This document shows positions 21,001 through 24,000 of a stretch of 62,585 nt of DNA, piece by piece. Source of the stretch: Escherichia coli (lineage in GTDB: Bacteria; Pseudomonadota; Gammaproteobacteria; Enterobacterales; Enterobacteriaceae); the NCBI RefSeq assembly GCF_002854065.1, contig NZ_CP024148.1; one strand, written 5' to 3'. Made by a program: the position numbers. Every line of letters starts with the position of its first letter. Positions within the stretch are counted from its first letter, which is position 1.

Positions 21001-24000
21001 CGTGATATGAAAATATCCAAACGCTCAATTTCCAGTGGTGGTGGTAAGGGAGGAAGTTCACGTACACGGAATGATGATGTAATAGAGCGCCCGGTTCTTC
21101 TTCCTGAAGAAATTGTGTCTCTCCGGGATAAGAAGAATAAAGCCAGAAATATTGCAATCCGTGAAATTATAACCAGTGAATTTAGCCGACCATTTATTGC
21201 CAACAAAATAATCTGGTTTGAAGAACCAGAGTTTAAACGCCGCGTGGATATCGCCCGTAACAATCATGTTGACATTCCAAACCTGTTTACACAAGAAGTC
21301 ATGGATGAAATAGCAAAAATTGCAGAAATTTATCTCCCTAAAGCTGGAGGAAAAAAAGTCATGGTTGCCGGAGGCAATGTGATTACTAATCCAGACCTTG
21401 ATAATCACGATAAAACAGACGTATCTGAATAATCCTCGCAATAAAGATACTATTGATTAGCAAAGACAGGATTCTATTATGAGAATAAAACACTCGAATA
21501 TGATAAATATGAATATGAATATGAATATGAATATGATGAAAGAAGCCATTGATGTTTTGATAAACTCTGAAAAACATATTCTGATTATAGGCGAAACTGG
21601 AACTGGAAAATCAACACTTTTAGCAGAATTGCTAATCAATGACACTGACGTTAAATATTTTGATTTCTGTGATATTTATAAACGCCATGAACACCTTCCC
21701 CTTCTAAAACACCATTATCTTTGCGATGAAAATTTTGATTATTTTGACTTTTTATCTGCACCTGAAAAAACGTTGGTTCTTAATAGTGTAGCCATCGGTA
21801 ACAACTTACGGGAATCAAAAGTTGTTCAGTTTATTGTTCGATTTATTAAAACAGCCAGGAAACGTGGCAAACGTCTTATTGTTGTCACGACTCCTTCAGA
21901 TGGCGGCGTACAGATACAAAATCTTTTCGACACAGTTATATCGTTAACCCGCTCTCACGATGAAATAGGATGCACAGTTATCATTCCAGTACCGGAGTTA
22001 ATTAAATATGAATAAAAAATTGCTTTGTTTATTAATATCCTCTTTTTTATTATCAGGCTGTGCAAACTTCAAAAAAATCAATGCTAATGAACTTGCAGCC
22101 GAAAGAGACGCACAAAAAGCGACTGAATACGCGAAAAAAATTCGTAATAACCCGGTTATCCAGGACTCAACAAAACAATGGATTAATACAACGCCAATTA
22201 TTGAAAAGCAGGTAAAGCAATCAGCGCCGCCCTGCCCGATTGTGATTAATACTCGTTCAGATATTGAGCTACGCCAGATCGCACAACGCATCACACAAAC
22301 CTGTCATATCCCGGTACGAATCAGCGCCGATGTCTGGACCTATCTGAACGGTACAGGCACTGGCTCAACACAACAAATGACAGGCTCAATTCCAGCACCT
22401 GATGCAAATGGAATGGTTCCTCTGGCGTCAGTAGGCAGTCAGCCAGTAAAAGTCTCTTCTGGCGGTACATCACTCCCTGAACTGAATATCTCCGGGCTTC
22501 CAGCCCTACTGCAAACCGTATCCTCACGGCTGGGAATATCCTGGAAATACGATAAAGGTCGTATCACATTCTTCTATCTGGAAACGCGCTCATTCCCGAT
22601 CACATATATGGACAGCAATGTGGCATACAACTCAAAAGTTGTGAGCGGCACAATGTCTTCCAGTGGCAGTACCGGCTCTACCAGTTCTGGCGGTATGACT
22701 GGCGACGCATCAAATACGCAAACTACAACCGTGGAAATGAAATCATCGCTGTACAACGACCTGAAAAGCGAAGTTTCCTCAATGCTGACACCAGGTACAG
22801 GGCGCATGTATCTGTCCACTGGTTCACTGACAGTAACAGATACCCCGGATGTACTGGACAGCGTTCAGGAGATTGTGAACAAGCGTAATAATGAAATGAG
22901 TCGTCAGGTTGTGCTGAACGTTGAAATCCTGAGTATCAAGAAATCAAGCCAGGAACAGGCGGGAATCGACTGGAACGCAGTATTTAATGATGGTCATCTT
23001 GGTCTGAGTCTTGGTGGCTCATTTGGTAATGCCGCCGAGAATGTTATTACCAGTGGTGTATCCATCGTGGACGGTAAGCTGGCTGGCTCAAAAGCATTTC
23101 TGAAAGCCCTGTCGTCACAAGGCAGCGTCAGTGTCGTAACGCAAAACTCCGCTGTGACTAAAAACCTGACGCCCGTCCCTATGCAAATTGCCAATCAGCA
23201 GGGCTTCATTGAAAGTGTCACAACCGATTCCACCGCCAATGTGGGATCATCCACGTCACTGAATGCGGCAACAATAACGACAGGATTCAATATGACTCTG
23301 CTTCCATACATTCAGCCGGATTCACAAAACCTGCAATTGCTGTTCTCAATGAGTCTGTCTGACAAACCTACTTTTGAGGTGTTCGAAAGTGGCGGCAGTA
23401 AAGCACAAACACCGAATGTGGATTTGAAAACAATTAATCAGACTATTGACCTGAAATCAGGCCAGACAGTTATTCTGAGTGGATTCCAGCAATCAAACCG
23501 GAAAACCAGTAAGCAAGGTGTAATAACCCCCTCCTTCTTTGGACTTGGGGGTGGCATTAACAGCGAAGACGGCGACACGATTCTGGTCGTTTTGATTACA
23601 CCAAATGTGCTTAATTCCGGCTCCAGTGCAGTAATAAAAAATGTGAACTAATTAACTGAAAACTCCCTGAAAAAACACAGGGAGTTTTTTTGGAGGTCAC
23701 TTTGTCTGAGAATAATCAGAATAACCGGAATTTCACTTCGGTTATTAAAAACAAGCGTGCTTTTTTCTCCGGTCTGGACTGGAAAACGCTTCCTTCAGAA
23801 GAAAAGAATGCGCGTACATTCGCAAGAAAAAACGACGCTGAATATTTTCTCTCCTGTCAGTATCAGGATTCAGAAAATGAAACCAAAACGATGGTGGCAT
23901 TTATCAGAAAAGAGGATCTTCCCACAGGGGCGTCCTCATTCTGGTCACTGGCACTGATGATAAAACCCCTCATCGAACCTGACGGATACGCTATCTGCGA

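Follow-up and report, generated by a model that had tools for sequence, protein, structure and literature searches.

A hexanucleotide coding repeat at the 5' end of the plasmid gene yfdA varies in copy number among IncI2 plasmids, probably with little functional effect

Analysis of a 62,585-nt stretch of Escherichia coli DNA (hereafter the window), which corresponds to an IncI2 conjugative plasmid of the mcr-1 backbone type, outlined a tandem AATATG repeat at the 5' end of yfdA that differs in copy number between closely related plasmids. Changes in copy number alter the length of the N-terminal tail of the encoded protein by Asn-Met dipeptides only. The reading that best accommodates the data, to which we assign a probability of about 0.7, is that of a slippage-prone coding microsatellite that adds or removes Asn-Met steps in a disordered, lineage-specific tail, with little or no functional effect.

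Genomic context and anatomy of the repeat

A search with an 801-nt query around the tract returned matches at 100% identity in many IncI2 plasmids, such as pmcr1_IncI2 (NZ_KU761326). In total, the query matched 515 PLSDB records and 297 complete E. coli genomes, and the matched segment was plasmid-borne in every instance. The tract is located at the beginning of a forward-strand open reading frame (21479..22015) coding for a 178-aa protein of the yfdA-type P-loop NTPase kind, which begins MRIKHSNMINMNMNMNMNMMKEAIDVLINSEKHILIIGETGTGKS... and carries the Walker A motif GETGTGKS. The gene is designated yfdA in plasmid R721, and its product is labelled by PGAP as either a "sigma 54-interacting transcriptional regulator" or an "ATP-binding protein". 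Its upstream neighbour, separated from it by a 46-nt gap, encodes a VirD4/TraG-type coupling protein (19474..21432, forward strand), and its downstream neighbour is pilN (22008..23651, forward strand), encoding the secretin lipoprotein of a type IVb pilus. The yfdA and pilN reading frames overlap by 8 nt (22008..22015, forward strand), with the pilN start codon (ATG) at 22008 and the yfdA stop codon (TAA) at 22013-22015, and the Shine-Dalgarno (SD) sequence of pilN (GGAG, 21994-21997) sits within yfdA. This geometry would allow translational coupling between the two genes. An Rfam search of positions 21000-22300 did not identify a match to any RNA family.

Direct reading of positions 21497-21538 revealed an isolated AATATG unit (21497-21502), an ATA spacer, five contiguous AATATG units and a closing ATG. 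The five perfect units make up the variable tract (21506..21535, forward strand) and encode (Asn-Met)5, while the isolated unit and its spacer (21497..21505, forward strand) encode N-M-I and were conserved in all 22 IncI2 alleles that were read. TRF called the repeat at 21506-21536, with a period of 6, 5.2 copies, 100% matches and a score of 62. Both direct reading and TRF hence confirm the initial annotation, which had placed AATATG hexamers at the 5' end of a P-loop gene upstream of pilN, and its count of "five to six" hexamers is accurate, in that five tandem units are accompanied by a sixth that is set apart by ATA. In the frame of the 21479..22015 open reading frame, the segment 21497-21538 translates as N-M-I-(N-M)5-M, giving MRIKHSNMINMNMNMNMNMMKEA..., and seven in-frame ATG codons were counted within these 42 nt (21500, 21509, 21515, 21521, 21527, 21533 and 21536), in agreement with the earlier description of an Asn-Met-coding tract containing several in-frame ATGs.

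The AATATG tract is the sole perfect repeat with a unit of 5-12 nt and at least three copies in the 62.6-kb window. Simulating the window 100 times under a first-order Markov model gave a period-6 maximum of 2.67 copies, with a mean of 2.34. The AATATG repeat is not a chance product.

Copy-number variation and mutability of the tract

Copy number among IncI2 plasmids was surveyed on the basis of BLAST span lengths, identity bands, a 60-row systematic sample, two targeted queries and 22 alleles read directly. A tract-spanning query of 141 nt matched 450 PLSDB IncI2 records and, in the 60-row systematic sample, the matched spans measured 123, 129, 135, 141 or 147 nt, with all steps being multiples of 6. 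Perfect runs of 2, 3, 4, 5, 6 and 7 units were identified in public IncI2 plasmids, 5 units being the commonest. In this approximate census, about 279 of the 450 records carry 5 units, about 60 carry 2 units (R721 among them) and about 20 carry 3 units; the 4-unit class comprises about 50 perfect and about 13-15 interrupted tracts. Six units were found in 24 records and seven units in 3, and a single record with an interrupted 6-unit tract (L031) completes the 450 over the four identity bands. The 5-unit mode could reflect selection, but is accounted for just as well by the clonal spread of mcr-1 plasmids.

The comparison of repeat number across isolates, which the initial annotation had put forward as its own check, thus revealed a tract that is not invariant, with 2-7 perfect units. 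The accompanying claim that changes in repeat number alter N-terminal length without frameshifting was upheld as well, the reading frame being intact in 22 of the 22 alleles read over this range. Because the unit is 6 nt long, all length changes remain in frame, and the tract therefore does not operate as an on/off frameshift switch. The alleles read directly include natural variants in which one tract ATG has changed to ATA or GTG, and one (L029) in which the ATA(AATATG)3 block is duplicated, the only block duplication among them.

The mutability of the tract was assessed by comparing flanks of 5 kb to its left and 5.5 kb to its right. Plasmids pMCR_1884_C3 (L011, 6 units) and pPG20180063.1 (L014, 4 units) present 0 SNPs in both flanks, and pD90-2 (L025, 5 units), pTBH7P1 (L010, 6 units) and pEC1260-mcr (L030, 7 units) present 0 SNPs in the left flank and 0-1 in the right. 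The right 5.5-kb flanks are identical in L011, L014, L025 and L030, which carry 6, 4, 5 and 7 units, respectively. The occurrence of 4-7 units on SNP-free flanks indicates that length changes in the tract greatly outpace base substitution. By a rough reckoning, three or more changes in length would have taken place against less than one substitution in 5.5-10.5 kb, and the rate of length change per locus would, in similarly rough terms, exceed the substitution rate per site by about four orders of magnitude. The same count was also detected on distinct backbones, with 6-unit tracts on flanks differing by 50-64 SNPs on the left (5 kb) and about 35 on the right (5.5 kb). Judging from these flanking sequences, equal counts on different backbones are the outcome of homoplasy or recombination.

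Slipped-strand mispairing is an established mechanism for repeats of this type. The pattern of whole-unit changes suggests that here it would gain and lose complete AATATG units.

Identity of the YfdA protein

The AF2 model of YfdA, based on a 25-sequence alignment, presented a mean pLDDT of 84 and a pTM of 0.81, with a confident core. Foldseek identified RadA, KaiC, FlaH and PilT as the nearest solved folds (E about 1e-4, TM about 0.5), a moderate likeness at the fold level. The Walker A motif GETGTGKS spans residues 38-45, with G38 and K44 invariant in the family alignment. The Walker B consensus is TLILD, with Asp present in at least 90% of the family; the window allele has TLVLN, with Asn at this position. 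A PDB sequence search with YfdA returned only generic Walker A/P-loop matches and none of the NCBIfam models came near its cut-off for this protein, with matches again confined to generic Walker A. On the basis of the Walker A motif and the model, YfdA is a small, putative P-loop NTPase with a predicted RecA/KaiC-like (ASCE) fold.

The sigma-54-interacting regulator label assigned by PGAP was rejected. The PF00158 match underlying it covers only profile positions 5-48 of 168, with a score of 22 bits, and its restriction to the Walker A end leaves the label unjustified. The YfdA core encompasses about 140 aa, as against the about 168 positions of the PF00158 domain and the additional DNA-binding domain that such a regulator requires. 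Identification of the gene as pilM was also discarded, since plasmid TP114 carries both pilL and pilM elsewhere.

An IncI2-specific N-terminal extension

An exhaustive search among 1.84 billion proteins defined a yfdA family of 38 representatives. The alignment to each of the distant family representatives begins at query residue 17-19, and homologues of 51-57% identity and 141-146 aa have their first residue at the position of Met19. In the window, the tract ends with the codon for Met19, which forms an ATG ATG pair with that of Met20 (21533..21538, forward strand); it is Met19 that aligns with the start Met of the distant homologues. Given that these homologues start at Met19, the preceding 18 residues, MRIKHSNMI(NM)n (21479..21532, forward strand), constitute an IncI2-specific N-terminal extension that is absent from all distant family members. 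Substitutions were observed in this extension at codon 6 (S/L/T) and codon 8 (M/T). In the AF2 model, residues 1-12 have pLDDT values below 50 and residue 17 opens the first helix, and the extension is hence predicted to be a disordered, flexible tail running into helix 1.

The position at which the homologues begin suggests that the Met19 codon is the ancestral start codon. Because the last unit holds the Met corresponding to the homologues' start, the tract probably arose by amplification of the hexamer containing this ancestral start codon, and an in-frame upstream ATG endowed with an SD sequence may later have taken over initiation. The tract would then be read as (Asn-Met)n within the 18-residue extension, ahead of the first helix of the putative RecA/KaiC-like P-loop domain.

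Distribution and dispensability of yfdA

The entire yfdA gene is missing in TP114, where virD4 is followed by an unrelated 41-nt spacer and then by pilN. This plasmid is highly conjugative and has a functional type IV pilus, which it needs only for mating in liquid and in the gut (PMC7508951). The tract region is missing in about 65 of the 515 IncI2 records (about 13%), and in a spread sample the TP114-type junction was detected in roughly that share. Shortened, internally deleted and duplicated forms of yfdA also occur, and in KY853650 the gene is unannotated and the virD4-pilN interval falls 86 nt short of that in other 4-unit plasmids.

In an IncF plasmid the yfdA homologue lies between traU and trbC, and in a Yersinia plasmid between virB2 and virB3/4; others were located close to nuclease and topoisomerase genes on contigs of IncX-like appearance. 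Homologues hence occur in F-type, VirB-type and IncX-like transfer regions, all of them without pil genes. This setting, together with the functional pilus of TP114, led us to reject yfdA as a type IVb pilus biogenesis gene. The existence of variant forms, the Walker B Asn of the window's lineage and the varied operon positions all point to relaxed constraint, and yfdA, as judged from its distribution, is an accessory passenger of conjugation regions. Since the gene is accessory and missing from the transfer-proficient TP114, the functional consequence of the repeat should be limited. Copy number probably has at most a slight effect, as the tail varies across the family and many functional plasmids either lack yfdA or carry it in deleted or disrupted form.

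Translation start and alternative roles of the tract

Translation most probably starts at ATG 21479, as this is the only start codon with a Shine-Dalgarno sequence. An AGGA core (21468..21471, forward strand) is separated from it by a 7-nt spacer and pairs with the 16S 3' end at -4.1 kcal/mol; neighbouring genes with clear SD sequences form duplexes of -5.7 to -7.7 kcal/mol. A TAG 21 nt ahead of ATG 21479 marks where the open reading frame opens, and the PGAP start maps to this position in every allele. For the five ATGs of the perfect run and for ATG 21536, the predicted SD duplex is 0 kcal/mol or worse. The ATG of the isolated first unit (21500) reaches -2.7 kcal/mol, but this value stems from a GAG pairing 16-18 nt upstream, too far away for an SD sequence.

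One candidate for a function of the tract is the tuning of translation, whereby SD-less AUGs in an A/U-rich, unstructured run would allow the number of units to set ribosome loading, the N-terminal form of the protein, the dosage of YfdA and, by way of the 8-nt gene overlap, that of PilN. The crowding of seven in-frame ATGs into 42 nt, the ancestral start codon in the last unit, the overlap of the yfdA stop with the pilN start, the location of the pilN SD within yfdA and the differences in copy number on identical backbones are all features that such a role could exploit. We nonetheless consider it improbable. Beyond the absence of SD pairing at the repeat ATGs, the predicted opening energy of the SD/ATG region is flat, at 3.5-3.7 kcal/mol for 2-10 units, and natural alleles carry ATA or GTG in place of tract ATGs. 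Furthermore, pilN of TP114 works with its own SD sequence and without yfdA (PMC7508951). The restriction of the SD sequence to ATG 21479, the flat opening energy and the natural replacement of repeat ATGs likewise leave unsupported the proposal, made in the initial annotation, that repeat count alters start-site choice.

Somewhat less likely again is the possibility that the true start is the ancestral Met19/Met20 pair, with ATG 21479 unused or serving a short leader reading, and with tract length setting the geometry of the leader. Distant homologues all begin at the Met19 position, and the three loci for which upstream DNA was read (P0021, P0029 and P0023) each carry a GAGG or GGAG of their own 5-7 nt ahead of the start; the changes at codons 6 and 8 are also indicative of weak constraint on the extension. 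No SD sequence was detected, however, within 20 nt of ATG 21533 or ATG 21536, whereas ATG 21479 has AGGA at ideal spacing and lies in the same frame, which is open in 22 of 22 alleles, so that ribosomes from 21479 would traverse the tract anyway. Some initiation inside the tract is possible, since the conserved core begins exactly at Met19.

More doubtful still is the notion that the tract, as an amplification of the ancestral start codon plus its three preceding bases, acts through its copy number as a heritable and reversible dial, splitting ribosomes between the SD-led upstream AUG and a ladder of SD-less AUGs and thereby setting the level of YfdA and, by way of the yfdA/pilN overlap, that of PilN. 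Were this the case, IncI2 plasmids could adjust mating that depends on the thin pilus, in liquid or in the gut.

Phase-variable ON/OFF switching via frameshift or promoter spacing is highly improbable. A hypermutable 5' repeat in a gene that adjoins surface-structure (pilus) genes would fit a contingency locus, but the 6-nt unit keeps all alleles in frame and the sole promoter-like match (21453-21480) is located upstream of the tract and does not span it. The promoter scan of the tract region returned only this weak site, versus a mean of 4.8 in shuffled sequence.

An assembly or sequencing artefact in public records is no more credible, for while repeats are prone to miscalling and the H27 record deviates in length by 1 nt, as is typical of long-read error, the tract differences are exact multiples of 6 throughout, each allele is present in at least three independent records from different laboratories, hosts and countries, a tract of 30-42 nt fits easily inside single short reads, and the 4-, 5- and 6-unit forms have separate RefSeq proteins (WP_001220542, WP_001220543 and WP_001220544).

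Significance and comparison with known systems

Read as a slippage-prone coding microsatellite, the repeat itself is probably of little biological consequence, and its biological interest is low unless the tuning idea is true. IncI2 plasmids rank first among the epidemic carriers of the colistin-resistance gene mcr-1, and the tract, whose count ranges from 4 to 7 on backbones that otherwise match exactly, is among the fastest-changing sites of the IncI2 backbone. As a typing marker, it could hence add resolution in tracing plasmid spread, although its use is limited by the recurrence of identical alleles on different backbones. In pan-genome analyses, unit changes would further make proteins look more diverse than they are. 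The analysis additionally corrects the annotation of yfdA, which encodes neither a sigma-54 regulator nor a Pil protein, and which is better described as the gene for a small, accessory P-loop protein that occurs in several kinds of transfer operon.

In the searched literature we found no description of the tract and no paper pairing yfdA with IncI2. Among the papers in that literature containing the repeat string, none dealt with IncI2 plasmids or yfdA, and the papers on TP114 and on the IncI2 T4SS do not treat yfdA.

A comparable case is provided by traD of F-like plasmids, which contains an in-frame tandem repeat, (CAACAGCCA)n, with 61 versus 11 repeats (PMC6402710). Like the yfdA tract, it is a short repeat in a conjugative-transfer gene, with a count that varies between close plasmids and a frame that is kept. 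The traD repeat differs in having a 9-nt unit and far larger counts, and it lies towards the C-terminus of a coupling protein that is essential. The yfdA tract, in turn, has a 6-nt unit that contains an ATG and occupies the very N-terminus of a protein that is dispensable.

In the contingency loci of Haemophilus, Neisseria and Campylobacter, repeat units of 1, 2, 4, 5 or 7 nt shift reading frame or promoter spacing and thereby switch genes on and off. These loci share with the yfdA tract a 5'-proximal repeat, changes attributable to slipped-strand mispairing and a rate of count change that outpaces point mutation. Unlike them, the yfdA tract, with its 6-nt unit, always leaves the frame intact, and nothing points to a promoter role for it.

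The presence of several in-frame start codons at the 5' end of one open reading frame is also a feature of IF2 alpha/beta and ClpB, in which each internal in-frame start is served by separate initiation signals and both products are known to be made. The candidate internal start AUGs of yfdA, by contrast, lack SD sequences.

The tract also resembles the VNTR/MLVA typing loci of Enterobacteriaceae, several of which are in-frame hexanucleotide repeats. These loci and the yfdA tract have in common short perfect units and stepwise alleles (here 2-7), which could be used as epidemiological markers of high resolution. The yfdA tract is distinguished from them by being plasmid-borne, by its position on the epidemic mcr-1 IncI2 backbone and by its homoplasy. 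Overall, the yfdA tract behaves as an in-frame coding VNTR, and the tract itself is new to the searched literature.

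Integrity of yfdA in the IncI2 plasmids

The Walker B motif of the P-loop protein YfdA, encoded by the TLVLN codons at 21779-21793, presents a substitution that differs between lineages. In the MRIKHS... lineage, to which the protein of the window belongs, this position is occupied by Asn, whereas the MRIKHL... lineage carries Asp, the residue shared by at least 90% of the family. This departure from the family residue suggests, at the sequence level, that the commonest mcr-1 IncI2 backbone carries a putatively ATPase-impaired yfdA allele.

The gene is absent from, or probably disrupted in, some other IncI2 plasmids. 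In TP114 (L027, NZ_MF521836.2) yfdA is wholly absent, and the virD4-pilN junction (16234-16283 of that locus) contains an unrelated 41-nt spacer with its own Shine-Dalgarno sequence. This type of junction appears to be common to about 13% of IncI2 records. In NZ_KY853650.1 (L017), the yfdA region (6030-6466 of this locus) is left without annotation, and the start of pilN is shifted 86 nt upstream relative to the other plasmids with four AATATG units; yfdA is probably internally deleted or pseudogenized there.

Length variation and additional repeats

Length variation in yfdA extends to a further stretch at 21660-21720, containing the codons for FDFCDIYKRHEHLPLLKHH, in which DFCDIYKRH is duplicated or 5-15 residues are deleted, depending on the IncI2 lineage. 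In addition, an exact complement of the repeat unit, CATATT, lies at 21576-21581, 40 nt downstream of the hexamer tract. RNA folds predicted that this element and one repeat unit form a weak A/U-rich stem, the partner unit shifting with copy number, and predicted no effect of the stem on start-site accessibility.

Besides the yfdA tract, the window plasmid contains another coding tandem repeat, at 47379-47603. It comprises 12.5 copies of an 18-bp unit within the minus-strand ORF 45715..50028, in frame with its 1437-aa relaxase-like product, where it encodes (ATEQ[A/E]Q)n. Further repeats, of the ACAACCCACA type and with periods of 12 and 45, are clustered at 50525-50663, starting right downstream of ORF 50025..50366 (minus strand) and ending upstream of ORF 50734..51135 (plus strand). 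This cluster may be oriT-related or regulatory.

YfdA homologs in other transfer operons

YfdA belongs to a very small family: a search of 1.84 billion proteins yielded 38 representatives. Small P-loop genes of this family were located in compared loci L032 (4001-4462), L033 (3989-4447) and L002-L009 (approximately 4001-4432), and their insertion sites vary among unrelated transfer operons. The family gene sits between traU and trbC in an F-type transfer operon and between virB2 and virB3/4 in a VirB-type operon, while in IncX-like contigs members of the family are found near SNase, AAA and topoisomerase genes.
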